Program-made: the position numbers and the translations under genes
NCBI GenBank assembly: GCA_964406665.1
Contig: CAYOSQ010000009.1
Coordinates: 6,106-70,105, forward strand
From: an uncultured Planctomycetia bacterium
GTDB taxonomy: Bacteria > Omnitrophota > Gorgyraeia > VGKH01 > JBHPFN01
DNA length: 64,000 nt
Direction: 5' to 3'
The notes under the pieces: generated by a model
Seen by the model: only the letters and a program-made list of their open reading frames with translations
Database searches by the model: none
Told to the model about the DNA's origin: nothing
Shown here: positions 5,690-49,494 of the stretch, piece by piece
How positions within the stretch are numbered: the first letter of the stretch is position 1
Layout of the letters: the number at the start of each line of letters is the position of its first letter

Positions 5690-5716
5690 AAGGATAAGAA
5701 TAAAAAGGAGAAAATA

Positions 5717-6514: not shown

Positions 6515-6576
6515 TAACCCCAAAGGGGTTATTGGCCCGCGAACTAATTACTAGCGGGCTTATAAAGGAGGCAACG

Positions 6577-7950: not shown

Positions 7951-8023
7951 ATAAAGTATAATGCTTTGCTCAGGGTGTTGTAGTTCAATGCCCTGAGCAA
8001 TAAGAAAATAAAGGAGAAATAAA

Positions 8024-8365
8024 ATGAAACTAATTGTTGCGATGATACAGCCTCATAAATTGCCGGATGTAAAGAAAGCACTCTATGGTGCTGAGGTTTT
8101 TAAGATGACTGTGACAAATGCATTGGGTTGTGGCCAGCAGAGAGGTTATACTGAGACATATCGTGGTGTAGAACAAGAGGTAAATCTTCTAAAGAAGATT
8201 CGAGTCGAGGTCGCGGTCAATGATGATTTTGTTGAACCAACAATTGAGGCGGTTGTTAAAGGTGCCCGCACAGGTAATATTGGAGATGGAAAAATATTTG
8301 TATTAGATTTACCCGAATGCATACGCATAAGAACAGGGGAAAGGGGGAATGAGGCTATCGGATAG
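8024..8365 (+). CDS. glnK: Nitrogen regulatory protein P-II (GlnK/GlnB)
   Basis: The 113-aa protein is [20 protein letters not shown]...GYTETYRG..., including the T-loop (RGxE), and it immediately follows amtB. A hairpin GCTCAGGG...CCCTGAGC lies in the 73-nt spacer. Confidence 0.9.
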
Positions 8366-8376
8366 TAAATTTTCCC

Positions 8377-8540
8377 CGCCCTTTTGGTAGGGTGGGATAA
8401 AATAAAAAAGTCACCAAAAGGGCGGGATCACGTTTACGAGCAGTCAAGCAGCTCGTAAAGTGCTGCTTGTGCTGTAATTTTGCGCATATGATTTACGTCG
8501 TTTAAGGAGACTCCGTAAATCATGCGCTCATTTAAGGAGG
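8377..8540 (+). promoter_or_regulatory. Structured 5' leader (copy B of the nitrogen-gene leader motif) upstream of glnA
   Basis: The GC hairpin is CCGCCCTTTTGGT (8377-8389) pairing with ACCAAAAGGGCGG (8413-8425). Mutually exclusive hairpins follow: TTTACGAG/CTCGTAAA and AAGCAGC/GCTGCTT. The final hairpin is GCGCAtaTGATTTACG (8482-8497) pairing with CGTAAATCAtGCGC (8514-8527). It is followed by TCATTTAAGGAGG and the ATG at 8547. The sequence and architecture parallel 1932-2070. Confidence 0.5.
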
Positions 8541-8546
8541 AATAAA

Positions 8547-9884: not shown

Positions 9885-9985
9885 TTGATAAGCTCGCGCT
9901 GTGGCTTTTTTAAAAAGCCACAGCGCACTAAGGATTCCTTTACAATTTTTATGCCTGATATTTAGGCGGTTAAGGATTGAGAATA

Positions 9986-10249
9986 ATGCAGAAACATGCT
10001 CAAGAAATGACCAAAGAGTTGGAATTAAAAACAGCAATTGACAATATTGATGATTTTTTCTTAAAGAGTAAGCAGAAGGAGTTGTATAAATTTATTATCG
10101 AGACAGTTGAGAAGCCGCTTATTGAAAGGACACTTGAGAGAACATATGGTAATCAGATTAAAGCAGCGAAACTTTTAGGAATAAACAGAAATACCTTGCG
10201 CGATAAGATTAAAAGGCTCAAAATAGATGTTAATAAATGGAAGCTTTAA
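9986..10249 (+). CDS. Fis-family DNA-binding protein (stand-alone Fis-type HTH)
   Basis: [46 protein letters not shown] closely parallels the C-terminal half of Fis and the NtrC HTH. I prefer the ATG at 9986, which has an AAGGA RBS. Confidence 0.65.
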
Positions 10250-10254
10250 ACCCG

Positions 10255-10384
10255 GGTTTGCCATAGTTAAAATTTTTACTGGGCAGGCAAATCCGCCCGT
10301 AGGGCCGATACGGCGCGACAAGTTGCGACTATCGGGGTTAACCCTAGCTAGAAAGCGATTTATCTCGCCTTGGCGAGATAAAAT
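10255..10384 (+). promoter_or_regulatory. gltB leader with three hairpins and a GGGTTAACCC palindrome
   Basis: GGGTTTGCC...GGCAAATCC lies at 10255-10295. CCGATA...TATCGG lies at 10306-10336. The perfect 11-bp stem TTTATCTCGCC-ttg-GGCGAGATAAA lies at 10358-10384, 17 nt before the ATG. Confidence 0.35.
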
Positions 10385-10401
10385 TTGGGTAATATAAAAC
10401 A

Positions 10402-14928: not shown

Positions 14929-14939
14929 GGGAATGAACA

Positions 14940-16367
14940 ATGGCTGATCCTAGAGGTTTCCTAAAATTTAAAAGAAAAAAATCTGCCTACCGTCCTGTAA
15001 AAGAACGTGTGGCTGATTATAAAGAAGCCAGTATTCTGCGCCTTGAAGATAGTTCTAAAGAACAGGCCTCACGCTGTATGGATTGCGGTACGCCATTTTG
15101 CCATTGGGGCTGTCCTATCGGTAACCATATCCCCGAGTGGAATAACCTTATGTTTCAGGGAAAGTGGGAAAAGGCATTTCAGCTGCTTGATGCTACAAAT
15201 AATATGCCGGAGATTACCGGCAGGCTTTGCCCTGCATTGTGTGAATATGCCTGTGTCTTAGGAATTAATGATGATGCTATAACCATAAGAGAAAATGAGC
15301 TCGATGTTATTGAGCTTGCATTTAAACATGGTTTGATTAAACCCAGGCCGCCGAAGCAACGTACAGGCAAACGTGTTGCAGTTGTAGGTTCTGGGCCGGC
15401 AGGATTATCTTGTGCAGCCCAGCTTAACAAAGCCGGACACAATGTTGTTGTATTTGAGAAGTCTGCCAAAGTCGGCGGAATTTTGAGATACGGCATTCCT
15501 GATTTTAAACTGGATAAAAAAATAATCGATAGGCGTCTTAAGCTTTGGCAGAAAGAAGGCATTGAATTCAAGACTTCTGTTGAGGTAGGCGAAGATTATC
15601 CTAGCAAAAAACTCTTAGATGAATTTGATGCTGTGTGTTTAACAGGTGGCAGTTCTGTGCCACGAGATCTTAATATCGAGGGAAGGGAATTAGCCGGCAT
15701 TCATTTTGCTATGGATTATTTGGTTCAATCAAACCAACGCGTGGCAGGTGAAAAGATCCCTAAGGATAATCTTATTGATGCCCAGGATAAAAAAGTTGTG
15801 ATTATCGGCGGTGGAGATACGGGCGCAGATTGTGTGGGGACTGCCAATAGGCAGGGTGCCAGCAAGATAGTGCAACTTGAAGTATTGCCTAAGCCGCCAG
15901 TCGATCGCACGGATGATTTCCCTTGGCCAACATACCCAATGTTGCTTAAAACCTCTACTTCACATGAAGAAGGCGCAGATAGACAATGGAGTATTCTGAC
16001 TAAGAAGTTTTCCGGTGAGGGTGTTAAGGTTGAAAAACTTCATTGTATTCAAGTTGAGTTTGGGCCAGAAAAGGATGCACACAATCGCCCTATTATGAAA
16101 GAGGTAAAGGGCAGTGAGTTTGAGATTGAGGCAGACTTAGTTATTCTGGCAGTTGGATTTATTCATCCCCAACATGGAGGCCTGCTTAATCAGCTTGGGT
16201 TAGAGTTTGATGTTAGGGGTAATGTAAAGACAGACGAAGATTTTCAAACTTCCAAAAAGAAAATCTTCTGTGCAGGAGATATGAGAAGAGGCCAATCACT
16301 TATTGTTTGGGCGGTGTATGAAGGCCGCGAGGCTGCTAGGGCGATAGATGGTTATCTCAGCAAGTAG
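14940..16367 (+). CDS. gltD: Glutamate synthase small subunit (NADPH-dependent)
   Basis: Two Cys clusters are present (CMDCGTPFC, CPALCEYAC). Two Rossmann folds are present (VAVVGSGPAGLSCA, VVIIGGGDTGADC). Confidence 0.9.
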   Translation: MADPRGFLKFKRKKSAYRPVKERVADYKEASILRLEDSSKEQASRCMDCGTPFCHWGCPIGNHIPEWNNLMFQGKWEKAFQLLDATNNMPEITGRLCPALCEYACVLGINDDAITIRENELDVIELAFKHGLIKPRPPKQRTGKRVAVVGSGPAGLSCAAQLNKAGHNVVVFEKSAKVGGILRYGIPDFKLDKKIIDRRLKLWQKEGIEFKTSVEVGEDYPSKKLLDEFDAVCLTGGSSVPRDLNIEGRELAGIHFAMDYLVQSNQRVAGEKIPKDNLIDAQDKKVVIIGGGDTGADCVGTANRQGASKIVQLEVLPKPPVDRTDDFPWPTYPMLLKTSTSHEEGADRQWSILTKKFSGEGVKVEKLHCIQVEFGPEKDAHNRPIMKEVKGSEFEIEADLVILAVGFIHPQHGGLLNQLGLEFDVRGNVKTDEDFQTSKKKIFCAGDMRRGQSLIVWAVYEGREAARAIDGYLSK

Positions 16368-16395
16368 GTGAAGCGTGAGAGTCAGTCGATTCAAT

Positions 16396-16430
16396 AGCCC
16401 GCTAAACTGTATTGTTTAGCGGGCTTTCTT
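16396..16430 (+). terminator. Rho-independent terminator after gltD
   Basis: The sequence is AGCCCGCTAAACtgtattGTTTAGCGGGCTttctt. Confidence 0.7.
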
Positions 16431-16536
16431 ATTGAATTGACAGTCCTCGCGCAACCTTAAATAGAGAAGGTGCGAGGGTTTGACAAAGGCAGAATTTAGA
16501 GTTAAGATAGGGGTTACTTGCCTATTAGAGGAAACT

Positions 16537-16911
16537 ATGAATAAAGCCCTATCATTTCTAAAAACAGTCCTTGATAAGTTAATTTATCTTATAAGAGCGC
16601 TAGCTGGCGCTGCAGCGATTCTTGCCATTATTTTTGGAGCTTTTGCATTTAGCGATAATGAATATAAAACAGGTGCATTGCAAATATTGGTTGGAGCGCT
16701 TTTGTTTTTATTTTTCTCAGGCAATATCCGTAAGCCTATGTACTTATTGGTTATGTTGGTTATGATGGTTGTATTAGTTGCTGCCTACTATGTCGACATA
16801 TATTTTGTCGGCAAGGACGGAACAACGTTGCTTATACTATTAGTCGCCCTACCGCTGTTTACGTTTTTGACAGTGAAGAAAATAGATAGGCATTATAAAA
16901 ATGGCTGTTAA
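16537..16911 (+). CDS. Small integral membrane protein (hypothetical)
   Basis: It has three or four hydrophobic helices. I prefer the ATG at 16537. The track's TTG at 16480 is actually a TTGACA -35-like hexamer. Confidence 0.45.
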   Translation: MNKALSFLKTVLDKLIYLIRALAGAAAILAIIFGAFAFSDNEYKTGALQILVGALLFLFFSGNIRKPMYLLVMLVMMVVLVAAYYVDIYFVGKDGTTLLILLVALPLFTFLTVKKIDRHYKNGC

Positions 16912-17002: not shown

Positions 17003-17929
17003 ATGGGAAACTATATAAGACAAATTAAACAGATCAAAGAGAAAACCGGCTGGACTCAAGGTCAATTAGCTGATGAGCTGGGCGTTTCTTTTGCTACTAT
17101 TAATCGTTGGCTCAATAAACACGCAAAGCCGCAGCCTTCACGCCTTAAATTAATTACAAGAATATTCCAGGATATGGTGGGGATTCAGCCTGTCCCGCAA
17201 AAGGAATTAGAGCGGCTTATTAAGAATATTGAATCTTTAAAGAAGAAGTTTAAAGATATAAGAAAATGTATCGTTGGAGATCAAGACCTTCTTGGTGATT
17301 TTTTAATCGAGCTTACCTATAATAGCAATGCCATTGAAGGTAGCCGTATGAGCAAGGCTAATACCAAGGCCATAATTCAGGATAAATCCCTGATTAAAGA
17401 TAGAACCCTTATTGAGCATCTGGAGGTAAAAAATCACGAATCAGTTTTAAGAAAAGTATTAACCGGCGAGATTAAAGGTCCTATTGCAGAAAGCCTTATT
17501 CTTAAGATGCATGCTCAGCTTATGCAGGGAATAATTGCTGATGCTGGATCATATCGCAAAAACTGGATTAAGATTACTGGAGTAGATTTGGTCTTGCCAG
17601 CTCCTGAAGATATAAAAGAAGAAATGGCTGACTTTTTTAAAAAGATAAATAGGCCAGCTGGTGATTCTTTGCAACATATTGCTAGGATGCATTATGAATT
17701 TGAGGCTATCCATCCATTTTCTGACGGAAACGGGAGGTTAGGCAGGCTGATTATAACTATTATGTTGCTGGATAAAAACTTTGCACCGGCAATAGTAAAG
17801 ATAGAAGACAGAAGCCGCTACTATGAAGTTTTGGATTATGCCAATAGAAAAGAAGGTACTTATTTAGTTAAGTTTATTCTTGAAAGTGTCTTGTCAGGAT
17901 TTAGATTGTTAAAATTGCGACAGCCGTAG
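17003..17929 (+). CDS. Fic-family protein with an N-terminal XRE-type HTH
   Basis: The HTH is GWTQGQLADELGVSFATINRWLN. The Fic motif is HPFSDGNGRLGRL. Confidence 0.85.
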   Translation: MGNYIRQIKQIKEKTGWTQGQLADELGVSFATINRWLNKHAKPQPSRLKLITRIFQDMVGIQPVPQKELERLIKNIESLKKKFKDIRKCIVGDQDLLGDFLIELTYNSNAIEGSRMSKANTKAIIQDKSLIKDRTLIEHLEVKNHESVLRKVLTGEIKGPIAESLILKMHAQLMQGIIADAGSYRKNWIKITGVDLVLPAPEDIKEEMADFFKKINRPAGDSLQHIARMHYEFEAIHPFSDGNGRLGRLIITIMLLDKNFAPAIVKIEDRSRYYEVLDYANRKEGTYLVKFILESVLSGFRLLKLRQP

Positions 17930-19019: not shown

Positions 19020-19871
19020 ATGGAAAACAGCGATAAACAGAAAGAGCAGATAGAAAATGAAATTAATAAGGCATTGCAATCTGGTGTCGGTCCAAAAGCT
19101 GCTAGAATAGCTTTGGCATTTTTAAGCGGTTTAGTTCCTGGAGTAGGAGGAGTTTTTGGTGCTGGAGCAGGGGCGTGGTCAGAATCAGAGCAGGAGAGAA
19201 TCAATAAAATATTCGCCTCTTGGTTAAAGCTTCAAGAAGATGAGATAAAAGAGATTGGTATTACGTTAATGGAAGTTATGATGCGAATTGATAAAGATGA
19301 TGAAAGAATTCAAGAAAGAATACAAAGCCCAGAATATTTGAAATTAATAAAGAAATGCTTCAGGGATTGGAGTGCGGCAGAAAGTGAAGAAAAAAGAATT
19401 CTAATTAGAAATCTTCTATGTAATGCCGCAGGCGGAGAGAAAATATGTGGGGATGACATTATTCGGATGTTCATTGAATGGATAGGCCGTTATACAGAGA
19501 AGCATTTCTTGATTGTAAAGGAAATATATAAAAATGAAGGTATAACTAGGTTAGGAATATGGCAGAACTTATATGGTGAACCAGAAAGGGAAGATTCTCC
19601 AGAGGCTGATTTGTATAAAACGCTGATGCATGATTTAAGTGTCGGACATGTAATAAGGCAACATAGAGATAAAGACTACATGGGAAATTTCTTGAAGAAA
19701 GCAAAACAGAGAAGTTCGGGCTCTAGAATGAAATCAGCATTTGATGATGAGGAAGAGTATGAATTGACAGGGCTAGGTAAATGGTTTATTCATTATACTA
19801 TGAACGAGATGATTCCTCGCATAACTAATAATGAGCAGCCTTCGAATGAAAAAAAGGAGGAAAATAATTGA
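19020..19871 (+). CDS. Hypothetical protein with an N-terminal Gly-zipper-like hydrophobic segment
   Basis: AARIALAFLSGLVPGVGGVFGAGAGAW is followed by a charged, helical remainder. No family was recognised. It starts 20 nt after the hydrolase gene. Confidence 0.5.
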   Translation: MENSDKQKEQIENEINKALQSGVGPKAARIALAFLSGLVPGVGGVFGAGAGAWSESEQERINKIFASWLKLQEDEIKEIGITLMEVMMRIDKDDERIQERIQSPEYLKLIKKCFRDWSAAESEEKRILIRNLLCNAAGGEKICGDDIIRMFIEWIGRYTEKHFLIVKEIYKNEGITRLGIWQNLYGEPEREDSPEADLYKTLMHDLSVGHVIRQHRDKDYMGNFLKKAKQRSSGSRMKSAFDDEEEYELTGLGKWFIHYTMNEMIPRITNNEQPSNEKKEENN

Positions 19872-20761: not shown

Positions 20762-20817
20762 TTTTTGCTTTAAGTTTTTATGTGCTTGAAGGTCAAAGAA
20801 AGAAGGAGAAATTTATT

Positions 20818-21399
20818 ATGAGAAAAATATTGTTTTTATTGTCAGTAATTATAATTTTGGTTTTGTCGCATGGCATTGCGCACGCTCAGAGATCTGCGAC
20901 CAATGACGATATGTGGCATCAAAACTTAATTGAAGATTATAAAAAAAGTTTGGTTAACGCCACTACGTGGGATAAGTGGCAAGGTTTTGCCTTTCTAGTA
21001 CAGCCTGAACTTTTTGAAGAAGCAACTCCTGAGGTATTGGCCTTGTTGGATGACCCGGATTTTGAGAATGTCATTTACATATATTTAAGAGAGCTAACCC
21101 AGTCGCAAGAAATACCGTTAGGAGAAAAGAAAGCGGTTATCCTTCGTGCACTAGATGCCTATGAACAAGATATCTTGTCACAAACACCCGAGGCGCTGAT
21201 AGATGAATGGCATACCATATATAAAGACAAAGGTGTCGACAGTCAAATGGGACGTATTACAACAATTTTCTATATTAGAAGTGATGCTGATGCGTTTAAG
21301 CCACTCGTGGAAGAATCGCAAACTATTCCTGAATTTAGCGAAGCTGCTAATGAAATCTTGAGCGGATGGGATGCGTTAACGGAGCATATGAAGCGTTGA
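20818..21399 (+). CDS. Exported hypothetical protein
   Basis: There is an AAGGAG RBS. The signal peptide is MRKILFLLSVIIILVLSHGIAHA. The upstream extension to 20782 is rejected. Confidence 0.5.
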   Translation: MRKILFLLSVIIILVLSHGIAHAQRSATNDDMWHQNLIEDYKKSLVNATTWDKWQGFAFLVQPELFEEATPEVLALLDDPDFENVIYIYLRELTQSQEIPLGEKKAVILRALDAYEQDILSQTPEALIDEWHTIYKDKGVDSQMGRITTIFYIRSDADAFKPLVEESQTIPEFSEAANEILSGWDALTEHMKR

Positions 21400-21416: not shown

Positions 21417-21613
21417 GAATTCCGGGGACACACCCACGAGTGCTGCTCACTAAAGTTCGCAAGCTCGGGTACGTACTCTGTAGGAAACACCAGCTCACGA
21501 TGTTCGCTGGTGCGACGAGGCCTTTGGCCTCGAACGAAGCTAGGAAATCAATCGTCGGGTATGTACTCTGTGATTGATAAAGGGGGCGCGGTCCGATTAG
21601 GGCCGCGCCCCCT
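21417..21613 (+). repeat. Composite intergenic structured repeat (family modules 1 and 2 plus a GC-rich hairpin)
   Basis: GAATTCCGGGGACAC is a half-palindrome. Module 1 is CACCCaCGAGTGCTGCTCACTAAAGTTCGCAAGCTCGGGTACGTACTCTGT (21431-21481). Module 2 is AACACCAGC..GCTGGTGCGaCGAGGCCtttGGCCTCGAACGAAG..AATCAATCG (21486-21553). A GGGGGCGCGG...CCGCGCCCCC hairpin lies at 21581-21613. Near-identical modules occur at 30184-30241 and 31456-31595. Confidence 0.7.
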
Positions 21614-29958: not shown

Positions 29959-30121
29959 TTAGTTATTTTATGCCTAAATAGTTGCCTTATTAGTAAGTGT
30001 TAACAACAAATAAATTATAGACGTTGTAGGCAATTCGGAAGATAAATGTAGGTTCCTGGAAATTTCAAAACGTAGTAGTAGTTTTCAAAAAGTATTATGC
30101 TATAACGAAATTTGTACAATA

Positions 30122-30459
30122 GGTACGTGTCCCCGGAATTCCGGGGACACGTACCTAATTTCAACTACGTAGTTGAAATTAAAAAGTACGTACACCCTTC
30201 GAGTGCTGCTCACTAAAGTTCGCAAGCTCGGGTACGTACTTTGAGGAATACACCCTACACTTCACTTAAGATATAGACTAGTGAGTGTTGTGGCCAGGAT
30301 GTAAATAATGGGCCACTAACGGGTGCGATTAAGGAAGGCACCTGCACAACAGGTGCGATTAATTCCAGCTGACTTATGTTCCTTGGCGTCCATAAGTCAG
30401 GGAATTAATCGAAGGTACACCCTCGTTTCACATCGGGTGCGTCGAGGCCGAAGGCCTCG
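30122..30459 (+). repeat. Dense array of palindromes and structured repeat modules (modules 1 and 3, a long bipartite hairpin, and a TCGAGGCC-gaa-GGCCTCGA hairpin) ending at the RBS
   Basis: A 34-bp perfect palindrome GGTACGTGTCCCCGGAATTCCGGGGACACGTACC lies at 30122-30155. ATTTCAACTACGTAGTTGAAAT lies at 30158-30179. Module 1 lies at 30184-30241 and module 3 at 30250-30327. The hairpin GATTAATTCC..CTGACTTATG...CATAAGTCAG..GGAATTAATC lies at 30357-30410. A short hairpin lies at 30441-30459. Confidence 0.7.
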
Positions 30460-30478
30460 AGCGGAAAGGAGAAAGAAC

Positions 30479-31444
30479 ATGGCGCAAAAAGAGATTACTG
30501 CAAGTGCATTAAATCCAAATGAGTTTATTGAGAGTATGGGCAAGCAGATTTCCGAGACAGTCAAAGACGGATGTGCGATCAACGCGCTTTCCGGTGGGGT
30601 GGATTCTTCAGCAGTTACCTTGCTCGGACACAAGGCATTGGGCAACAGGTTAAAGACTTATTTTATTGATAACGGTCTCATGCGCAGCAAAGAACCAAAA
30701 AGTATTGCTTTAGCATTTAAGAAGTTAGGGGTTAAGGTTGAGATTTTAGATGCTCAGGATGCGTTTTTCAGCGCTTTAAAAGGCATCACTGATCCCGAGC
30801 AGAAAAGAGAAGCGATTACCCAAACGTTTTACAAAGATATATTCGGTAAGCTGGTAAGAGAAAGCGGTGCGAAGTTTCTCCTGCAGGGGACAATCCTTAC
30901 TGACGTGGATGAGACTAAAGCCGGTATCAAAAGGCAGCATAATGTATTTGAACAGTTAGGTATTGATCCTCAGGAGGCATTTGGGTATAAGATTATCGAG
31001 CCGTTAGTGCAGATGCGTAAAGACGGCGTGCGTAAACTGGGCGAAGCATTAGGGTTGCCGAAGTCACTTTTTAAAAGGATTCCGTTTCCCGGTCCTGCGC
31101 TATCCGCGCGTGTTATCGGAGAAGCTACGCCTGAGCGCATTGAAATCGTACGGCAGGCAACAGTCATCACCGAAAAGATGCTTTCCTATGCTAAGGCATT
31201 TCAGTATATGGCGATTTTACACGAAGACAGGGTTACCGGCATGCGTGATAACAAAAGGGATTTTGGCATGCAGATTGAGATTAGATGTTGGGATAGTGTG
31301 GATGCACGTCAGGCTACGCCTACAAAAATACCCTTTAAGCGGCTGCGCGCGCTGGCTGATAAAATCACCGCTGAAGTACCGGGTGTAGTGAGTGTTACTT
31401 ATAACATAACCACAAAACCACCTTCAACAATTGAGGCGGTGTAG
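30479..31444 (+). CDS. guaA: GMP synthase ATP-pyrophosphatase subunit (GuaA C-terminal domain as a stand-alone protein, archaeal GuaAB-like)
   Basis: The PP-loop is ALSGGVDSSAVTLL. The dimerisation/C-terminal region is ...PFPGPALSARVIGE...SVTYNITTKPPSTIEAV, which parallels GuaA. There is no glutamine amidotransferase domain. The ATG at 30479 has a GGAAAGGAG RBS. The track extension to 30323 runs across the repeats and is rejected. Confidence 0.8.
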   Translation: MAQKEITASALNPNEFIESMGKQISETVKDGCAINALSGGVDSSAVTLLGHKALGNRLKTYFIDNGLMRSKEPKSIALAFKKLGVKVEILDAQDAFFSALKGITDPEQKREAITQTFYKDIFGKLVRESGAKFLLQGTILTDVDETKAGIKRQHNVFEQLGIDPQEAFGYKIIEPLVQMRKDGVRKLGEALGLPKSLFKRIPFPGPALSARVIGEATPERIEIVRQATVITEKMLSYAKAFQYMAILHEDRVTGMRDNKRDFGMQIEIRCWDSVDARQATPTKIPFKRLRALADKITAEVPGVVSVTYNITTKPPSTIEAV

Positions 31445-31455
31445 TAGAATTCTAA

Positions 31456-31595
31456 AAGTACGTACACCCTTCGAGTGCTGCTCACTAAAGTTCGCAAGCT
31501 CGAGTACGTACTCTGTGGAAACACCAGCTTGCTGAGAAGCGCTCGCTGGTGCGTCGAGGCCTTTGGCCTCGAACGAAGTCAGAAAATCAATCGAT
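31456..31595 (+). repeat. Structured repeat modules 1 and 2
   Basis: Module 1 is AAAGTACGTACACCCTTCGAGTGCTGCTCACTAAAGTTCGCAAGCTCGAGTACGTACTCTGT. Module 2 is AACACCAGC..GCTGGTGCGTCGAGGCCtttGGCCTCGAACGAAG..AAATCAATCG. Both are near-identical to 21431-21553. Confidence 0.7.
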
Positions 31596-32824: not shown

Positions 32825-33016
32825 ATGGGAAAAGCAGAAGGTGTATGTAAGATGGATGGATGTGAAGGGGCTTGGTATTTTCTAGGGATAATTGGCGCGG
32901 TAGTGTATTACATTTCAACCGCAACGAGCTTTTGGATTGGCGTGTTAGGATTTCTAAAAGCCCTTGTCTGGCCAGCATTCCTCGTCTTCGAAGTACTCAA
33001 ATTTGTGGGGGCGTAA
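32825..33016 (+). CDS. Small membrane protein (about 63 aa), hypothetical
   Basis: A GAGGGAGG RBS precedes it. Two hydrophobic helices follow a Cys-containing N-terminus (MGKAEGVCKMDGCEG). Confidence 0.4.
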   Translation: MGKAEGVCKMDGCEGAWYFLGIIGAVVYYISTATSFWIGVLGFLKALVWPAFLVFEVLKFVGA

Positions 33017-33104
33017 CACCCTACACTTAAGATATAGACTAGTGAGTGTTGTGGCTAAAATGTAAGTAAGCCACTAACGGGTGCGTCGAGGCCGAAGGCC
33101 TCGA
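33016..33104 (+). repeat. Structured repeat module 3 plus a TCGAGGCC-gaa-GGCCTCGA hairpin, ending at the RBS
   Basis: AACACCCTACACTTAAGATATAGACTAGTGAGTGTTGTGGCTaaaatgtaagtaAGCCACTAACGGGTGCG then TCGAGGCCGAAGGCCTCGA. The inner stem is GTGGCT/AGCCAC here and GTGGCC/GGCCAC at 30290-30316, a compensatory change. Confidence 0.65.
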
Positions 33105-33129
33105 GCGAAAAAAAAGGAGTCGTAATAAA

Positions 33130-34128
33130 TTGAAAAAAGGAAATAGAATTGTATGTTTTTCTTTGTTGGTTAGTATCACTCTATATGCATCCGAGGTTTA
33201 TGCTAAAGGAAAATTATTGGACAGGATAAGAGATAGGATAGAGAAAAAGCGCAGCCAGTGTACAGGTCTTAAAGAAGACAGGGAAAGAATGCCGGGGGAT
33301 TATGATTATTCTCTTAAGCATAATGGGAAGAAGAGAACCTACAAACTGCATGTCCCTCGGTCTTATAGCGGCCGGCCCACCGCTCTTATTTTGGCTTTTC
33401 ACGGAGGCATGGGCTCTGCAGAAGTTATGTCAAAATATTATGGCCTGAGAGAAAAATCAGATAGGCAAGGTTTTATAGTTGCGTTTCCAAATGGGGCAAG
33501 CAGATTGCCAACAGGAAAATTTGCCACCTGGAACGCAGGCAACTGCTGTGGTTATGCTGTTGAGAGTCAGAGCGATGACGTTGGTTTTATAAAAGCGGTT
33601 ATTGATGATATCAAAAACAAGGTAAACGTTAATAAGGTATTTGCAACCGGAATGTCCAACGGGGGTATGTTGTCATATCGCCTTGCTTGTGATATGTCTG
33701 ATACATTCTCTGCGATTGCCGCTATTTCAGGAACAGATAATTATGATGAATGTAATCCGACAAAGCCAATATCAATTATGCACATTCATTCTTTGCAAGA
33801 TTCGCATGTGCTTTATAAAGGGGGCTGTGGTCCTGATTGTCTCGTAGGGGGTGAGACTGAGTTTGTTTCAGTACCTAAGACTATTGCTAAATGGGTTAAT
33901 ATAAACCAGTGCAACAAAAGTCCTAGAAGAGTGTTTCAGAATGAGAATGCTTTTTGTGATGAGTATTCAGGCTGTAAAAGTAATGTGACTGTAAAAGTTT
34001 GTACAACAAGAGATGGTGGGCATTCTTGGGCTGGGGCAAAAAAAGTGCCAAATCCTCTTGAAAAAAATTCCCCTTCACAATCAATAAATGCAACAGACGA
34101 AATCTGGAAGTTCTTTAAGAATCAATAA
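33130..34128 (+). CDS. Secreted esterase of the PHB-depolymerase/LpqC family
   Basis: It has a TTG start with an AAGGAG RBS and a signal peptide. The motifs are LILAFHGGMGS, AFPNG and GMSNGG (nucleophile elbow). Confidence 0.65.
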   Translation: MKKGNRIVCFSLLVSITLYASEVYAKGKLLDRIRDRIEKKRSQCTGLKEDRERMPGDYDYSLKHNGKKRTYKLHVPRSYSGRPTALILAFHGGMGSAEVMSKYYGLREKSDRQGFIVAFPNGASRLPTGKFATWNAGNCCGYAVESQSDDVGFIKAVIDDIKNKVNVNKVFATGMSNGGMLSYRLACDMSDTFSAIAAISGTDNYDECNPTKPISIMHIHSLQDSHVLYKGGCGPDCLVGGETEFVSVPKTIAKWVNINQCNKSPRRVFQNENAFCDEYSGCKSNVTVKVCTTRDGGHSWAGAKKVPNPLEKNSPSQSINATDEIWKFFKNQ

Positions 34129-34165
34129 AGAAATCTTGGGCTGGTTCATCCAGAATATGTAAAAG

Positions 34166-34197
34166 AAAAGTACGTACTCGAGTACGTACTTTTTTTA
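34166..34197. terminator. Bidirectional terminator formed by a 28-bp perfect palindrome with a GTACGTAC core
   Basis: AAAAGTACGTACTCGAGTACGTACTTTT is followed by TTT. It sits between convergent genes. Confidence 0.7.
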
Positions 34198-34240
34198 TTC
34201 TAATGCATCTGCTCGCCGAGCTATGCTCGTCTCGCGGTGC

Positions 34241-34323
34241 GATTGATTCCAGCTAATTTATGTCAGCGACAGCAGCTAGTTATTATTCAAAAACGTCGCA
34301 GCCATAAGCTAGGGAATCAATCG
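34241..34323. repeat. Long hairpin repeat related to 30357-30410, overlapping the 3' end of the minus-strand gene
   Basis: GATTGATTCC..AGCTAATTTATG...CATAAGCTAG..GGAATCAATC. The outer stem shows a compensatory A/T to G/C change relative to GATTAATTCC/GGAATTAATC. Confidence 0.5.
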
Positions 34324-35120
34324 AGATGCGGTTCTAAACTGCGCATTTTATCAATGGTAATTTCTGGAACTTCGTAGGTGCCGTCTCCAGGCACAGGCGG
34401 GTATTGAATAAAGTATTCCTTAACTAGCTCGTCATAAGTTTTATAAGCTTGTGTATATAGTTTTAATCCTGCTAAGGCATCTCCTAAGATATCGAGTCCT
34501 AGCAGAGAATGTTTATCAATTGCCAATACTGAATCTGCAATTTTTTTTGCCTCTGCAAAATTACCTCTTATTAAAGCGTAACGGCCGTTTTTAACCAGGT
34601 GATTTATTTCATTGTCCCTCCGAGCATTTGCTATAACTGGTAAGTTCAGAGAGTTACTTTCGGCATTATCAATCGTTGCGGATAAGGAATAGTTGTCGGG
34701 CTTAAGTTTTGCAGTTTCCTGGGGTGTAATATAGAACACATGTTCAATAGCATTGACCTCATCAAGGATAACTTTATTTTCTGTGACCGCAGTTGCTTGG
34801 ACATCGATTTTAACAATATTGTCCTGGCTGTCGCGTAAGGTAAACTTTATACCTTTTATCCAGGATTCTTTATTAGTGCCTAACTGGGTGTGAATAATTT
34901 TTTTATCTTCATTGCCGTAGGCAATATTTTGATAGTAAGCATTCATTGCATCAGGATTAGAGAGGATAAGAAAAATAATTATTGGTTCACCGGGCTGAAA
35001 GCCTTTAGCATTTATTGCTACATCATAGTAAATTACGGTTTTCAAATTGGCAGCGTAAGCTGAATTGATTGATAACAATAAAAGCCCGATTAAAAGAAAT
35101 AAGATTATTTTTTTCATCAT
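34317..35120 (-). CDS. Secreted hypothetical protein, translationally coupled to the upstream metalloprotease gene
   Basis: The signal peptide is MMKKIILFLLIGLLLLSINSAYA. There is an ATGA overlap with 35117..37237. Confidence 0.55.
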   Translation of the reverse strand: MMKKIILFLLIGLLLLSINSAYAANLKTVIYYDVAINAKGFQPGEPIIIFLILSNPDAMNAYYQNIAYGNEDKKIIHTQLGTNKESWIKGIKFTLRDSQDNIVKIDVQATAVTENKVILDEVNAIEHVFYITPQETAKLKPDNYSLSATIDNAESNSLNLPVIANARRDNEINHLVKNGRYALIRGNFAEAKKIADSVLAIDKHSLLGLDILGDALAGLKLYTQAYKTYDELVKEYFIQYPPVPGDGTYEVPEITIDKMRSLEPHLD

Positions 35121-37237
35121 TTGTCATTTACCCTCATTTGCCCCAGACAGTTACCTCTGTTGGCGTTTCCGCCGACTAAGCCGCCACTATTATATCCAGT
35201 ACCGGTTGAAAAAGTACAGAAAGCTGCTCCATCAGGATCTCTGGGCCAGCAGCCAAACATCCCTGCGTCAGAAAAAACTTCAAAGAAACGACAGTATTTC
35301 ATAACACAGTTTACATCTCCGCTTTGTTGAGATCCTTTAGGGTGGAATCTAAAATCATGAGGAAGTCTGTGTCCGCAAAGGTATAGAGGAGGTGATCCTG
35401 TCCAATATCTATAAGATGTCCTTATTGCAGCAGAGGCTCTGTTGTTGTAAGCAGCGCTGCTTTCAGGGGAATAGATCGTAGTTTTTGCCCAGGGTGCTTC
35501 TCCGTGATGCCAGACGCAAGTAGAGTGGCCCAGTTCGTGAGCAGCTATGCGTGGTGTCCAGTGATTTAATACTGTGGCAGTAACATTTATCGGCGGTCCC
35601 ATAATGCCTTCGTTGATTCTCATTTGCATTGAGCGGCCACCTATGTTTGTTGGGATTTCGCCGGAATTCATTTTCAGAATAAGACCGTGTTGGGCTCCGG
35701 TTGTGGCATGACCTCTATTAGGATTTCCCACTCTGCGTCTTAATTCATTATTTGCTACTAAATGGCACATTATGCCTGATGTAGGGTAATGCCCGATACC
35801 CCTGCCGGTTCTGTCATTTATTAACAGATCCTTGAAGTCTGTATGGAATCTGGTCTGAGAACCTTGTACAAAAAAGCCTCGATACTCTTCGTAGTTTGAG
35901 TATCCGTCACCATCATGGCCGTCTAAATTGGGGGTGTTATCATTATCATTTGTAGCTGGTGCACCATTTTTATCCTGAGGGGCTGAATCAGCAATTTTAT
36001 TATTGTTATCATCAAGAGGAATCGAGACTGGTCCGTTGGGAGCGATATCTTCACAACCCTCGGCACTTGCTTTAATAAATCCGAAAGAGCCATAGTCATT
36101 GCTGGTAACTGTAACAGTTGCAGTAGTGGTTAATCTTTGAGTTTCAGCAGTTGTATAGAAACTTCCTCGCCCACCGCCTAAAAGAAATCCCGGCATAGGT
36201 TCATTAAAATGAAGATCAGGCTTGGTCTGAAAACCTTTGTTAAGGCAAACACCTTTTTCATTAGAAACACGGCTTAAATCAAATTTTATTCTACGTGGCG
36301 GACCTGGATATACCCAGCCTTGTCCGCCGACCCATCTATAGGTTCTTGCAGTAAATCTAACCATATTATTTTCTTCTGGTAACCAAGCAGCAGGACATTT
36401 AGTTATATCTATGCCAATACGAAAAACTTCAGGCGGAGGTGTTACGTCTGGTTCTTCAGGTGGAGTTGGTTCTGGGCCAGGATCAACCGGATCTTCTGGA
36501 GGAGCTGGTGGGACAGGTGGCGTTGGTTCTGGCTCTGGTTCGGGTTCTGGTGTAGGCTCAGGCTCAGGCTCGGGTTCTGGTTCAGGTTCAGGAGTTGGAG
36601 CAGGAGCGGGAGCAGGCGCAGGCTCAGGTTGTTCATCACAAGGTTTAACTTTAAAATTAGAGATTGAAACACTGTATAGCCGAGGCATCTTCCCTGAATT
36701 AACATCATCACAACAGGCTCGAACATCTTCAACTATAAGATGTCTTTCTCTGGGGTCAGTTGATTTGACAGTAATTCTAATACAGCGGCCAAGATCGCCG
36801 CTAAAAGTATGACTGGAGTAAGGTGGGATTATCACGGTTTGCCTGCCGGCATCTGAAGTTATGGTTACTTCTAAATTACGCCTTCTCTCCCAGCGGTTTT
36901 GAATGGTGATGTTTTCGAATTCGCAACAATCACTTTCAGGAGGCGCAACTGAGGGATATTCTGGCCGGGAATTATCAATAATAATTACCGGCGGAGCACC
37001 CAAATGATGTTTTTCGGTAGTTGTGCCAATAGGAAGATTCTCTGTTCCAAAAGTGAAAGGTGATTCGCCAGTAGTAGTGGCTGGAGTTGAATCAGGTGTG
37101 CTTGCTGGCGGTGGCGAAGAGCCATGTTCCTCAGAACAGCTTGCAAAAGTATTAACAGTATAAGATATAAATAGGAAGCTAAAAAGAAAGAGACAGGAGA
37201 AAACTTTTTTGAAATGAGGTTTTAATATACTTTTCAC
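35117..37237 (-). CDS. Lipoprotein with a metzincin-like zinc-metalloprotease motif, a Cys-flanked N-domain and a (PE)n/PAPAP linker
   Basis: A signal plus lipobox-like ..TFASC is present. A CC...CC-bracketed domain follows. The linker is PEPAPAPAPAPTPEPEPEPEPEPEPTPEPEPEPEP. A thrombospondin-type-3-like Asp-rich segment is NDNDNTPNLDGHDGDGYSNYEEY. HELGHSTCVWH fits HExxHxxxxxH. Confidence 0.6.
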   Translation of the reverse strand: MKSILKPHFKKVFSCLFLFSFLFISYTVNTFASCSEEHGSSPPPASTPDSTPATTTGESPFTFGTENLPIGTTTEKHHLGAPPVIIIDNSRPEYPSVAPPESDCCEFENITIQNRWERRRNLEVTITSDAGRQTVIIPPYSSHTFSGDLGRCIRITVKSTDPRERHLIVEDVRACCDDVNSGKMPRLYSVSISNFKVKPCDEQPEPAPAPAPAPTPEPEPEPEPEPEPTPEPEPEPEPTPPVPPAPPEDPVDPGPEPTPPEEPDVTPPPEVFRIGIDITKCPAAWLPEENNMVRFTARTYRWVGGQGWVYPGPPRRIKFDLSRVSNEKGVCLNKGFQTKPDLHFNEPMPGFLLGGGRGSFYTTAETQRLTTTATVTVTSNDYGSFGFIKASAEGCEDIAPNGPVSIPLDDNNNKIADSAPQDKNGAPATNDNDNTPNLDGHDGDGYSNYEEYRGFFVQGSQTRFHTDFKDLLINDRTGRGIGHYPTSGIMCHLVANNELRRRVGNPNRGHATTGAQHGLILKMNSGEIPTNIGGRSMQMRINEGIMGPPINVTATVLNHWTPRIAAHELGHSTCVWHHGEAPWAKTTIYSPESSAAYNNRASAAIRTSYRYWTGSPPLYLCGHRLPHDFRFHPKGSQQSGDVNCVMKYCRFFEVFSDAGMFGCWPRDPDGAAFCTFSTGTGYNSGGLVGGNANRGNCLGQMRVNDK

Positions 37238-37480
37238 AATAATAATATTGAGAGATAATTAGGTAAGCTGTATTTTACTATTGTCTTATGAGCTTGTCAA
37301 GAGGGCTTGTTAGTTGGGCTGTTCGTTAACGGCTTTTGACTACGCCCCGCAAAAAGCGCGGGATTGCTCCCTAAGATAAATCTTAGGGAGACTATAGTGA
37401 CTACAGTCTTTCTAAAGCTTGCTTTAGGAAGCCCTAAAGAATTGGGCTTTACCCTAATAGTTCCCTGTGGGACGTAGTTT

Positions 37481-37511
37481 CAAGAGTACGTACCTTAAGT
37501 ACGTACTCTTG
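37481..37511. repeat. Perfect 13-bp-stem palindrome with a GTACGTAC core
   Basis: The sequence is CAAGAGTACGTACcttaaGTACGTACTCTTG. Confidence 0.6.
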
Positions 37512-37559
37512 AATAATAGTTATATACTTCTTTCCTTAATAGTGCTATTATGGGCTATT

Positions 37560-43032: not shown

Positions 43033-46000
43033 ATGCCTAAGAGAACAGACATACATAAAATTTTAATTATCGGATCAGGTCCAATAGTAATTAGCCAGGC
43101 CTGTGAGTTTGATTACTCCGGTACTCAAGCCTGCAAGGCTTTACGTGAAGAAGGCTTTGAAGTTATTCTGGTTAATTCTAACCCGGCAACAATTATGACA
43201 GACCCGGAAACTGCTGATGCAACTTATATCGAGCCGATTACTCCAGAAGTTGTGGAGAAAATTATCGAGAAAGAACGCCCTGATGCTTTGCTTCCAACCT
43301 TAGGTGGTCAAACAGGTCTTAATACTGCAATGAAGATTGTAGAAAATGGCGTTTTGGAAAAATACAATGTTAAGATGCTCGGTGCGAATTATGACGTAAT
43401 CAAAAAGGCTGAAGACAGAGATGATTTCAAAAAGGCAATGCTTAAGATTGGTTTAGATTTACCTAAAAGTGCTTTAGCCTATAACATGGATGAGGCCCGA
43501 GCTGCTTTAAAAGAAATCGGCTTGCCTGTAATTATCCGGCCCAGTTTTACTTTAGGTGGAACGGGTGGTGGAATCACAACTACAGAAGAAGAGTTTGAGA
43601 AAATAGCCGCGCTGGGCTTAAAGAACAGTATGATCAGCGAAGTTCTAGTTGAAGAATCTATCGTCGGCTGGAAAGAGTATGAGCTTGAAGTAATGCGTGA
43701 TAGAAAAGACAATGTAGTAATTGTCTGTTCCATTGAAAACTTTGATGCAATGGGAATTCATACAGGAGATTCAATTACAGTAGCTCCGGCACAAACCTTA
43801 ACTGACCGGGAATATCAAAAAATGCGTAATGCAGCACTTGAAATTATCCGGGAGATCGGAGTGGAGACTGGAGGTTCCAATATACAGTTTGCAGTTGATC
43901 CTAAAACGGGGAGAATGGTTGTAATTGAGATGAATCCCAGAGTTTCTAGAAGTTCTGCTTTAGCCAGTAAGGCTACAGGATTTCCTATTGCAAAATTTGC
44001 TGCTAAACTTGCCGTGGGTTATACCTTAGATGAAATTCAAAACGATATTACAAAAGAGACACCGGCATCTTTTGAGCCGAGCATTGATTATTGTGTGGTG
44101 AAAATCCCCCGGTTTACTTTTGAGAAGTTTCCTGAGGCAAAAGATATTTTAGGTATTTCCATGAAATCAGTCGGCGAAACAATGGCAATTGGTAGAACTT
44201 TTAAAGAGGCTTTGCAGAAGGGATTGCGCGGTTTAGAAATCGGCCATATAGGATTAGATAATAAATTGGATTTTTCCCAAGTCCCAGATGAAAAAATCAG
44301 GCTTAGACTGAAAGAACCTAATGCCTCAAGAATATTCTATATTAAATATGCTATTCAGAAAGGCTACCGCTTAGAAGAAATATTAAATCTTACCGGGATA
44401 GATCCTTGGTTCATTGAAAATATTCGACAGATAGTGTTGTTAGAAGATGAATTGAAAAGAGAATTTGCCGAGAATAAAAAATTAAGCGTTGAATCTTTAA
44501 GAGAAGCTAAGCAGTGCGGTTTTAGTGATAAGCAGATCGCACAGATAATTAATTCTGATGAATTATCAGTCAGGGCTTTAAGAAAAAAACAGGGGATAGA
44601 GGCAACTTATAAACTGGTTGATACCTGTGCTGCAGAATTTGAGGCATATACGCCTTATTATTATTCTACTTATGAGACAGAAAATGAGACCAGGCCCTCA
44701 GATAAAAAGAAAATAATGATTTTAGGTGGGGGGCCAAACAGAATAGGTCAGGGAATAGAGTTTGATTATTGCTGCTGTCATGCATCTTTTGCACTTAAAG
44801 AGTTAGATTTTGAAACTATTATGGTTAACTCCAATCCGGAGACAGTTTCTACGGATTATGACACATCGGATAAATTATATTTTGAGCCGCTTACATTTGA
44901 AGACGTAATGAATATTATTGATAAAGAAAAACCAGACGGAGTTATTGTTCAGTTTGGCGGACAAACCCCGCTGAACTTGGCTCAGCAGTTAGAAAAGGCT
45001 GGTGCACCAATAATAGGTACTAGTGTAAAATCAATTGATATGGCTGAGAACAGAGATAAGTTTTCTCGGGTTGTTAAAAAATTAAAGATTTATCAGCCAG
45101 ATAATGGTTCAGCAAAATCTGAGGAAGAGGCCAAGAAAATTGCTCGCAAGATTGGCTATCCGATATTAGTCAGGCCTTCTTATGTCTTAGGCGGAAGAGC
45201 AATGCGCATTGTTTATACCGAAGGCGAATTGGAAACGTTTATCCACGAAGCACAAGAAGCTTCTGAGGAACATCCTATTCTTATTGATAAGTTTTTAGAA
45301 GATGCGGTTGAAGTGGATGTAGATGCTGTTTCAGATGGCAAGAAAACAATTATTGGCGGGATAATGGAACATATTGAAGGAGCGGGAATTCACTCTGGAG
45401 ATTCTGCCTGTGTATTACCCCCGCATACTTTAAGTGATGAAATTATAGAGAAAATTAGAAATCATACTTATGCATTATCCCGAGAACTTAAAGTTAAAGG
45501 TTTATTGAATATTCAGTTTGCTGTTAAGGGTGATGATGTTTATGTTTTAGAGGTTAACCCCCGGGCTTCCAGAACAGCTCCTTTTGTGAGCAAGGCTACA
45601 GATGTTCCTTTGGCTAAGATTGCGGCAAAAGTAATGGCGGGAAAATCTCTGGAATCTTTAGGAATTATAAAAGAAAAAGAAGTCTCTCATGTATCTGTTA
45701 AAGAATCAGTATTGCCATTTTCCAGATTTTCCGGCGTAGATATAATTTTAGGGCCGGAGATGAAATCTACGGGAGAAGTTATGGGAGTGGATAATTCTTT
45801 TGGAATGGCATTTTATAAAGCACAGGTGGCTGCCGGACAGATGTTGCCGGATAAGGGCAAAATATTTATAAGTGTAAAAAATGACGATAAGAGAGATATT
45901 ATTTTTATCGCGAAGAAACTTTTTGATTTAGGGTTTGAGATTGTATCCACTAAGGGAACTTCTAAGGTGCTTCAGTCAAACAGTATTGAAACAACCACTG

Positions 46001-46257
46001 TGGGTAAGATTGGTGAAGGCAAAGAAAGTATTCTAGACCTTTTAAAAAGAGATGAAATAAAACTCATTATCAATACTCCATCAGGTCGGCGTGGTCAATC
46101 GGATATGCGTCCGATAAGAAGCTTGGCTGTTTTACACGGGGTACCCAGCATTACCACTATTCAGGGAGCCCAGGCTGCGGTTAATGGAATTGAAGCTATG
46201 ACCAAAGGAGATTTCAAGGTTAAATCGATTCAGGAATTTGCACAGGCTAGTCTTTAA
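43033..46257 (+). CDS. carB: Carbamoyl-phosphate synthase large subunit, copy 1 (1074 aa)
   Basis: There are two ATP-grasp halves, an oligomerisation domain and an MGS-like C-terminus. The N-terminus is [25 protein letters not shown]. Confidence 0.9.
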
Positions 46258-49200: not shown

Positions 49201-49494
49201 AAATTGCTAAAAGAAAATAAAATAGAATCTGATTTAATCAAGAAGTTACACGAAGGAAGACCCAATATTCTTGATACGATTAAGAATAAGGGAATAAATA
49301 TGATTATCAATACTCCTATTGGAAAAAATAGCAAATTCGATGATAGCTATATACGCATAGCTGCAATTCAACATAAGATTCCCTACATTACAACTTTAGC
49401 AGCTGCTCAGGCAAGTATTGAAGGCATCGAGGCTGCTAAGAAAAAAGCAGTAGTTCCTGTTTCGCTTCAGGATTATTACAAGAACAAAAAATAA
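46291..49494 (+). CDS. carB: Carbamoyl-phosphate synthase large subunit, copy 2 (1067 aa), tandem paralog
   Basis: It has the same full-length architecture. The N-terminus [62 protein letters not shown] is nearly identical to copy 1, and the rest diverges. Confidence 0.85.

Follow-up and report, generated by a model that had tools for sequence, protein, structure and literature searches.

A stack of hairpin-forming repeat modules upstream of a guaA-like gene in an uncultured Omnitrophota bacterium

In a 64,000-nt stretch of DNA from an uncultured bacterium of the Omnitrophota (contig CAYOSQ010000009.1; the whole stretch is called the window below), a guaA-like gene is preceded by a 340-base spacer crowded with palindromes, which raises the question of what kind of element such a spacer is. 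The original prediction, made from the sequence alone, had described six palindromic or structured units here, and by sequence reading and with a repeat finder we found all six in place. Read on the + strand, the stack runs P38, P26, M1, an H1-type frame holding the two M3 hairpins, a small H1-type hairpin, a decayed copy of a hairpin that we call H2, another H1-type hairpin, H3 and the Shine-Dalgarno sequence (SD). P38 (30120-30157; TAGGTACGTGTCCCCGGAA followed by TTCCGGGGACACGTACCTA) is a perfect palindrome, as had been reported, and extends over 38 bp, the reported 34 bp being its core; half of it recurs at 21417-21431. Likewise, the palindrome first given as 22 bp is P26, perfect over 26 bp (30156-30181; TAATTTCAACTAC followed by GTAGTTGAAATTA) and occurring once in the window. 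M1 (30183-30242) has 11-nt arms, AAAGTACGTAC and GTACGTACTTT, flanking a 38-nt structured insert. In M3 (30250-30327) an H1-type frame, (A)CACCC..GGGTGCG, surrounds two inner hairpins, ACACT-T-CACT/AGTGAGTGT and GTGGCC/GGCCAC, with a 5-nt tandem duplication (CACTT) relative to a copy at 33016. The small H1-type hairpin GCACCTG-CACAA-CAGGTGC(G) (30338-30357) ends in a GGTGCG that precedes ATTAATTC, the same arrangement as in the canonical H1-H2 elements described below. Next come a "bipartite hairpin" (30356-30411), which a covariance model, R1, aligns with H2 and which is followed by an SD relic, CGAAGG, that carries the unit to 30416, and the H1-type hairpin ACACCC-TCGTTTCACATC-GGGTGCG (30417-30441). 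Finally H3, TCGAGGCC-GAA-GGCCTCGA (30442-30460), lies 5 nt 5' of the SD AAGGAG (30466-30471) of the gene, whose ATG is at 30479; it stands at the SD-adjacent position that the canonical copies give to H2.

This stack of hairpin-forming repeats is real. As RNA, 30110-30485 folds with an energy of -158 kcal/mol, compared with -104 +/- 5 in dinucleotide shuffles (z = -10.1). The sequence GTACGTAC, the predicted core of the family, occurs nine times in the window against 0.13 expected, and none of 100 shuffles reached nine; every copy lies in a spacer, between 21.4 and 37.5 kb. Together, this excess and the z-score of the fold exclude chance. Nor is the stack an assembly artefact, since the locus is 99.9-100% identical across 11 contigs assembled independently by JGI and ENA.

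We call the modules of the stack (M1, M3, H3, P38 and others) and their copies in the window family 1. A sensitive all-against-all comparison of spacers linked family members across only six of them, at 21.4, 30.1, 31.4, 33.0, 34.2 and 37.5 kb, in which M1, H1, H3, M3 and H2-like units are combined differently and all lie on the + strand; fold z-scores among these spacers were -10.1, -4.8 and -5.6. Composite copy A (21417-21554), in the 3' region of the gene at 20782-21399, comprises half of P38, the M1 insert with its 3' arm, an H1 (ACACCAGC..GCTGGTGCG), H3 with a TTT loop and the tail GAAATCAATCG; after it come a hairpin at 21545-21578 and a terminator-like hairpin at 21581-21613. Its M1 (21437-21477) is 100% identical over 41 nt, and the missing 5' arm is replaced by the half P38 (GAATTCCGGGGACAC, 21417-21431). 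Composite copy C (31454-31593), between the guaA-like gene and a Fer4 gene, has the order M1, H1, H3 (TTT loop) and tail AAAATCAATCG and shares 87% identity with copy A across 131 nt. Thus, of the two further M1 copies predicted at 21431 and 31456, the second is complete (31454-31512, 98% identical to M1 at 30183-30242) and the first lacks an arm. Copy D (33016-33107), consisting of M3 and then H3 with its GAA loop, abuts the ribosome-binding site (RBS) of an esterase gene (33130-34128); its M3, at 33016-33088, matches 30250-30327 at ~89% and has the GTGGCT...AGCCAC stem that had been predicted there. Copy E (34236-34323) consists of GGTGCG and the bipartite hairpin (34238-34323), whose loop carries a 28-nt extra hairpin, and the compensatory change predicted for this homologue at 34241 was also found (CGATTAATTCC/GGAATTAATCG versus CGATTGATTCC/GGAATCAATCG). 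The minus-strand gene 34317-35120 shares its final codons and its stop (34317-34319) with the 3' arm of copy E (34313-34323), so that here a repeat supplies the end of an open reading frame.

H3 recurs in identical form at 33086-33104, likewise just 5' of an RBS, and the distances to the SD in the two RBS-linked copies are 5 nt and 12 nt. Its TTT-loop variants lie at 21516-21533, with no RBS near, and at 31554-31572, ~28 nt 5' of an RBS; all of this agrees with the prediction of a terminal hairpin that abuts the RBS and recurs at 33086 and, with a TTT loop, at 21518 and 31553. The GTACGTAC core also forms the two further structures proposed for it, at 34166 and 37481, which we place at 34163-34196 and 37479-37513, neither with an assigned strand. 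The first (AAGAAAAGTACGTACTC followed by GAGTACGTACTTTTTTT) begins 35 nt past the stop of the gene 33130-34128, between convergent genes, and has an A-run upstream, a stem of 12-17 bp and T7 downstream. These are the features of an intrinsic terminator, and by form it is a convincing bidirectional one; the suggestion that the family may supply terminators thus holds in form for one member. The second, with 15-bp arms and a 5-nt loop, belongs to the multi-hairpin leader of a DEAD-box helicase gene. A GTACGTAC-GAT-GTACGTAC hairpin was also seen at 12170-12195 of L054, a contig from a relative in another genus, and this type of hairpin may accordingly be older than the present lineage. Sense-strand GGTGCG is also found in a small hairpin (GCGCAACCTT..AAGGTGCG, 16440-16479) directly before the gene 16480-16911, which may represent a minimal H1-type unit.

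Is the pairing itself conserved? The original prediction had taken covariation to suggest selection on RNA or DNA secondary structure. We counted pairs in hand-curated alignments of the stack (copy B) with copies D and E, as MAFFT pairwise alignments misplaced indels and hid the compensation in M3. Among 37 base pairs there were three compensatory doubles, one wobble and one break, the last two in the bipartite hairpin. The doubles are GTGGCC/GGCCAC to GTGGCT/AGCCAC in M3, A-T to G-C in the outer stem of the bipartite hairpin and G-C to A-T in its inner stem; when the same eight substitutions were placed at random, at least three compensatory doubles arose with P = 1.4e-4. Indels fall in loops (the CACTT duplication in copy B, the 28-nt hairpin in copy E), and the inner part of the family's H1 stem varies but stays complementary (AGC/GCT, C/G, TG/CA). 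Stem pairing is therefore maintained through compensatory changes, and the part of the claim that concerns pairing stands. The changes do not discriminate between the molecules, because a wobble and a break are mirror images on the two strands and reveal neither the strand nor RNA versus DNA.

The bipartite hairpin connects the stack to a wider element, of which the window holds two canonical copies, both on the + strand. One (1926-2067; R1 score 71.3 bits) abuts the SD of a GltB-like gene (ATG at 2071) and reads CCCGCACC..GGTGCGGG, then ATTAATTC-GCACAAGTGATTTAC..GTAAATCATGTGC-TCATTAAAT-GGAGG; the other (8375-8542; 67.2 bits) abuts the SD of glnA (ATG at 8547). Each consists of H1, which is GC-rich, variable and of the CCCGCACC..GGTGCGGG type, and H2, a conserved hairpin of ~70 nt (2000-2067 and 8472-8542) whose 3' foot normally meets AAGGAGG and a start codon, and both copies end in ..GCTCATTnAA(T)GGAGG just before the start codon. 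Run with filters off, R1 hit 30356-30416 with 29.5 bits (E = 5e-4) on the + strand and 13.2 bits on the - strand, and its alignment matches AUUAAUUC, UGACUUA-G, UCC-UAAGUCA, AUUAAU and a relic GAAGG at the SD position. The junction GGTGCG(GG)ATTAATTC is common to the stack and to the canonical copy at 1994-2010 (GGTGCGGG-ATTAATTC), and occurs in another contig, L067, as well. Furthermore, 9 of the 22 sense-strand occurrences of GGTGCG lie in spacers, which make up 9% of the window (p = 8e-5), compared with a single spacer occurrence of the complement. By sequence homology, then, the CACC..GGTGCG hairpin and the bipartite hairpin after it are together a decayed copy of H1-H2, and the shared junction together with the GGTGCG enrichment identifies the family frame (A)CACCn..nGGTGCG with the H1 of the wider element. 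A near-palindromic hairpin with the H2 core (AACTTACG..CGTAAGTT, 5621-5661, strand unassigned) is a weak H2 relative (22.2 bits, E = 0.018) and belongs to the structured spacer 5382-5716. Strongly structured spacers also begin at 1811, 3658, 5382, 7951, 8366 and 16368 (z from -4.6 to -10.6), and those beyond 38 kb are unremarkable (z above -1). Multi-hairpin spacers in the first 38 kb were noted at 1811-2070, 3658-3809, 5382-5716, 7951-8023, 8366-8546, 16368-16479 and 37238-37559.

Beyond the window, a 21-base H2 pattern matched 44 metagenome loci against ~2 expected by chance. Thirty-three H2 copies were aligned, giving the consensus GGTTCAATTCGCGCAAACGAYTTACG-loop-CGTAARTCGTGCGCTCATTGAAGGAGG, and R1 was built from them. 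The four pairs whose 3' base had been left free in the pattern all covary (UA/CG/AU, GC/AU/CG/UA, UA/CG and UA/CG), and none of 500 shuffles reached the observed covariation score. With R1 we found 76 H2 copies in ~290 kb; in the alignment of these copies fitted to the model, 16 of 20 pairs had changed on both sides and 93.9% of cells were paired, and again 0 of 500 shuffles reached the observed value by any measure. Some 52 of these copies lie directly against AGGAGG with a start codon and some 20 do not, the SD-less ones being mostly the upstream-lying members of pairs; copies found only by R1 included both kinds. Where the sources give names, the H2-bearing contigs are Omnitrophota. The two-hairpin unit occurs twice in L054, with compensatory differences (GATTTAC/GTAAATC versus GACTTAC/GTAAGTC), and H2 there lies at 11878-11946, 17267-17334 and 19753-19820; further loci were found in L065-L108. 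Types of H1 conserved across genomes were also noted, namely CCCGCACC-TTTT..AAAA-GGTGCGGG, CCCCGCCCTTTTGG..CCAAAAGGGCGGGG, CCCTTGACA..TGTCAAGGG and CCCCACACCAATTGGTGTGGGG, with loci at 1926-2003 and 8375-8426 of the window, 847-930 of L067, ~1200-1250 of L108 and in L099.

The genes that follow H2 are diverse and mostly housekeeping. We take them, most being assigned from N-terminal sequences by general knowledge, to be gltB-like, glnA, panC, rubredoxin, spoVG, rpsF, rpsH, rpoA, rplS, rpmE, an ATP-synthase c/K-like subunit, ribH, tpiA, ilvE, parB and pyrR. Given this diversity, H2 is not a riboswitch. Two contigs that encode IlvE proteins of only 63% identity both have H2 immediately before ilvE, and copies also immediately precede rpsH and rpoA, whose usual place is within operons for ribosomal proteins; this suggests that H2 has been long retained or is functional. 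Copies are also arranged with one another: in other Omnitrophota contigs we counted 15 head-to-head doublets (inverted copy, H1, forward copy; 21-259 nt apart), among them L107 2960-3270 and 3640-3920 and others in L081, L082, L100, L102, L105 and L108, the forward copy carrying the SD. Tandem arrays occur in L078 and L095, hairpins are nested in the loops of H2 in L075 and of copy E in the window, and density is high in some genomes (6 copies per 9.9 kb of L107). No doublet was seen for the two canonical H2 copies or the family-1 modules in the window.

H2 was not in Rfam 15, and our literature search found no paper describing it; over the canonical H2 loci Rfam gave only a tRNA and two sub-threshold matches elsewhere in those loci. 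Freshwater-2 RNA (RF02980), a metagenomic motif of cis-regulatory type that also lies upstream of genes, is not the same family: it matched 8449-8549 weakly (27.6 bits, E = 0.41, against a gathering threshold of 49.9), and canonical H2 copies searched in 15 further loci gave nothing at E <= 0.1. Pairing of the H2 loop (CUCC) with the SD as a pseudoknot was rejected by reasoning alone, as there is no linker to span the 20-bp stem. Nor is H1 a promoter, as TTGACA is present in only one H1 subtype and P1 covaries; the 5' arm of P1 appears to be selected for pairing, which fits transcription and would also fit a DNA hairpin.

With moderate confidence we favour the reading that the spacer is a locally amplified hairpin mosaic of the BIME/REPIN kind, built on H1-H2 and co-transcribed as mRNA structure. 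The modules exist, move independently of genes, keep one orientation and conserve their pairing, and one unit is homologous to H2. On this proposal the core H1-H2, widespread in the phylum, would have been duplicated, nested and recombined here with M1, other GTACGTAC-stem hairpins, M3, P38, P26 and H3. The copying would have worked on DNA and over short distances, through recombination, gene conversion or a hairpin-specific enzyme and not through classical transposition; the grounds are the clustering of the copies, the 98% identical direct M1 copies on either side of the guaA-like gene and the exchange of arms between modules. The modules would then be transcribed together with their flanking genes. 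In mRNA the hairpin at 34163-34196 would act as a terminator, and copies A, C and E, which come after stop codons, could protect, process or define 3' ends or intercistronic regions by analogy with REPs and the RNase III sites of phage T7. H3 (30442, 33086) and H2 (2000, 8472) would provide a stable platform directly 5' of a single-stranded SD, and such a helix could shield the SD from structure upstream, mark a site of processing or stack on the SD:anti-SD helix. That the modules control translation is conjecture; the hairpin beside the SD does not draw it into pairing.

Several results weigh against this reading. We read 83 kb of contiguous sequence (the window, 10 kb downstream and 8.9 kb upstream), and all family-1 copies fall within one 16-kb stretch of it, no module copy occurring in the added 10 kb or 8.9 kb, so that dispersal is not demonstrated; by a simple estimate, random placement would put six spacers into one such stretch with a probability of roughly 1e-3. 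No Y1_Tnp, RAYT or other transposase, no autonomous insertion sequence sharing the ends of M1 and no module-copying enzyme was found in the 83 kb. Derivation of H3, M1, P38 and P26 from the wider element could not be demonstrated. SD adjacency of the 44 pattern-found H2 copies is partly so by construction, because the junction with the SD and most of the 3' arm were prescribed by the pattern. Finally, G.U pairs fill 22 cells of the 76-copy alignment and A.C mismatches 20, a parity that is unusual for structured RNA; there is thus no signature of selection on a sense-strand RNA, and a DNA-level hairpin is possible. As to confinement, which the original prediction had said would point to local segmental duplication, the copies are indeed local, but the genes flanking the six module spacers are unrelated to one another and only the intergenic modules have been copied, which is not what a segmental duplication leaves.

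Farther afield, the H3 pattern GGTGCGNCGAGGCCNNNGGCCTCG had 43 single matches in 185,579 species-representative genomes (the source genome not being among them), none in an Omnitrophota record, and those that were checked lie in high-GC genomes. A 22-mer from the M1 insert had no match in the JGI metagenome collection, which also lacks the source contigs; M1 and H2 each had none in viral contigs; and M1, M3, H3 and P38 were not found in 266 kb of other Omnitrophota contigs. A concatenated six-frame translation of the modules used as a protein query (spurious open reading frames) found nothing at E <= 10, and a literature search on GTACGTAC, the H2 3' end and Omnitrophota repeats, hairpins or Shine-Dalgarno sequences gave nothing relevant. 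At gathering thresholds no Rfam 15 family matched the window, and at E <= 10 or E <= 1 there were only chance-level matches; the Thr_leader and MicC matches at 34.1 kb merely reflect the terminator hairpin. On present evidence, then, M1, M3, H3 and P38 are lineage-specific and clustered. The label "genome-specific" fits these four and does not fit the bipartite and CACC..GGTGCG hairpins, which are present in many Omnitrophota.

The clustering could also mean that the stack is neutral debris with no part to play in RNA or DNA, its hairpins having been made and homogenised in an accessory region that underwent rearrangement, through local duplication, gene conversion and the correction of quasi-palindromes by template switching between arms. 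The family-1 copies are 87-100% identical with loops included, the 5-nt tandem duplication and the loop insertions are signs of active slippage, and the G.U to A.C parity is what a DNA-level process predicts. The gene itself seems to have moved. It encodes a PP-loop ATPase of 321 aa that has a GMP_synt_C domain but lacks an amidotransferase domain and whose homologues are annotated as Candidatus Omnitrophota; the nearest non-identical relatives, in contigs L054 (82% identity) and L055 (80%), share with each other a gene neighbourhood that differs from the one here, and are preceded by spacers of 14 nt and 180 nt. This, together with the direct M1 copies that bracket the gene here (30183-30242 and 31454-31512), suggests relocation by recombination at the repeats. 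Debris without a role, however, would not explain why H2 is kept, heavily covarying, upstream of ilvE genes whose products are 63% identical, why H3 is positioned 5 nt and 12 nt before two SDs, or why the hairpin at 34163 has full terminator form, and we regard this explanation as unlikely, while giving it real weight.

We also doubt, without dismissing the idea, that the modules are selfish or commensal repeats that propagate as single-stranded DNA hairpins, like REP/REPIN-RAYT or IS200/IS605-PATE elements, with a Y1 (HUH) transposase, encoded elsewhere, that would recognise and copy the hairpins, and with RNA effects that are incidental. The head-to-head doublets and tandem arrays of H2 do resemble REPINs and BIMEs, copy density reaches the level seen in L107, and the covariation keeps strictly to Watson-Crick pairs, G.U not being in excess. 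A fixed orientation is kept, in a window with genes and GC skew all pointing one way. Set against these points, the 83 kb contains no Y1 transposase, the docking of H2 on the SD of housekeeping genes is not a property of REPs, and the family-1 modules are clustered and not scattered.

Classical MITEs, in which the GTACGTAC arms would be terminal inverted repeats mobilised in trans by the transposase of an insertion sequence (IS), are distinctly improbable. M1 does consist of 11-nt inverted arms around a 38-nt insert, with copies between unrelated genes. No direct repeat flanks it, however (TTAA before and GAGG after at 30183/30242; TCTA and CTGT at 31454/31512), copy A lacks one arm, the window has no IS or transposase, and the arms are simply a hairpin stem that is found without an insert as well (34163, 37479). 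With neither a transposase or RAYT in the 83 kb nor a target-site duplication, we class the modules neither as MITEs nor as REPs in the strict sense; of the "REP/MITE-like family" first proposed, there remain structured, non-coding, modular spacer repeats in one orientation, and the MITE half is not supported. Least probable is a regulatory leader specific to the guaA-like gene (riboswitch, attenuator or thermometer), which would account for a long, very stable structure directly upstream of it, perhaps beginning at an extended -10-like TGCTATAAC (30098-30106) that could start a leader of ~365 nt, but which is already largely refuted, as the spacers of the nearest orthologues are unrelated and carry no modules, the same modules adjoin unrelated genes and there is no Rfam match; the stack is thus not a conserved guaA-specific leader.

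How does the favoured mosaic compare with known systems? REP and BIME sequences are short imperfect palindromes in transcribed extragenic DNA, which can act as mRNA 3' stabilisers or terminators and are often kept at the same intergenic site across species. The modules resemble them as extragenic, co-oriented palindromes combined in mosaics of several types, and the H2 superfamily in other contigs resembles REPINs in its inverted doublets and tandem arrays. Unlike REPs, the units here are longer and composite (H2 has ~70 nt with a UC/UC internal loop and a bulge), show no conserved GTAG by the hairpins and have no RAYT in the window or its flanks; moreover, the downstream H2 copy is docked directly on the SD, and family 1 is clustered in 16 kb. 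BOX (boxA-B-C of Streptococcus pneumoniae), ERIC/IRU, Correia (NEMIS) and RUP elements are modular or long palindromic intergenic repeats that are co-transcribed, form stable hairpins and alter mRNA processing, stability or expression, Correia elements being RNase III substrates. The modules share with them the modular or long palindromic build and the folding into stable hairpins, but there is no sequence relationship, the Correia TA duplication and 26-bp terminal inverted repeat are absent, and nested hairpin-in-loop insertions and SD docking are foreign to those families. The intercistronic RNase III sites of T7 and the 5' stabilisers of Gram-positive bacteria (STAB-SD, the aprE and ermC leaders) are matched by H2 as a ~20-bp, loop-interrupted hairpin directly 5' of a strong SD, also within operons (rpsH, rpoA). 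By this analogy of form, H2 has the geometry that would be expected for a cleavage leaving an upstream hairpin and a short downstream leader, or for protection of a 5' end; those elements, however, are not multi-copy repeats with inverted partners. Integron attC sites offer no parallel, with no RYYYAAC or GTTRRRY core sites in the modules and no integrase domain in the window. Altogether the modules appear to form a BIME/REPIN-like mosaic, a family that in itself would be ordinary for a specialist in repeats; the new twist is the conserved core docked on the ribosome-binding site.

Other features of the window were noted alongside. Positions 1-16400, read with L109, hold a nitrogen-assimilation cluster (a GltB-domain protein, two glnA, amt, P-II, a 1508-aa GltB and a GltD-like protein), two genes of which carry the canonical H1-H2 leaders. 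Near-consensus TTGACA-N17-TATAAT promoters lie at ~1817-1846 and ~5413-5441, and a sigma-70 promoter scan of the window gave 42 sites against 43 expected. The direct-repeat families D1, D2, D4 and D10 arise from two complete carbamoyl-phosphate synthase large-subunit genes in tandem after carA (43033-46257 and 46291-49494). Family D5 arises from the long (PE)n/(TPEPEPEP) tract of a 706-aa exported protein (35117-37237, minus strand) that has no Pfam match and a HELGH zinc-protease-like motif. A link to restriction-modification through GTAC was rejected, as GTAC is not avoided in the window (ratio 0.89).

REP, BIME, BOX and Correia families are known from a few cultured lineages, and we found no intergenic repeat family of this kind described for the Omnitrophota, which are uncultured and often ultra-small bacteria. 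The present case shows mosaic construction, in which loops harbour further hairpins, modules exchange arms and direct copies enclose genes, and it exposed a strongly covarying element fixed against the RBS of unrelated housekeeping genes, including genes of ribosomal-protein operons. Tentatively, and as a possibility on which we would not yet rely, the Omnitrophota-wide H1-H2 might dock its 3' foot on the SD of a substantial fraction of genes (in two contigs a copy is met about every 2-3 kb), either as a repeat that targets or supplies ribosome-binding sites or as a cassette for mRNA processing or translation initiation that multiplies like a REPIN, in which case the 340-bp stack could be a snapshot of local diversification by nesting and recombination. 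Control of mRNA ends or ribosome loading by the element would add a layer to gene expression throughout the lineage; mobility with the RBS as target would instead represent a new insertion specificity.

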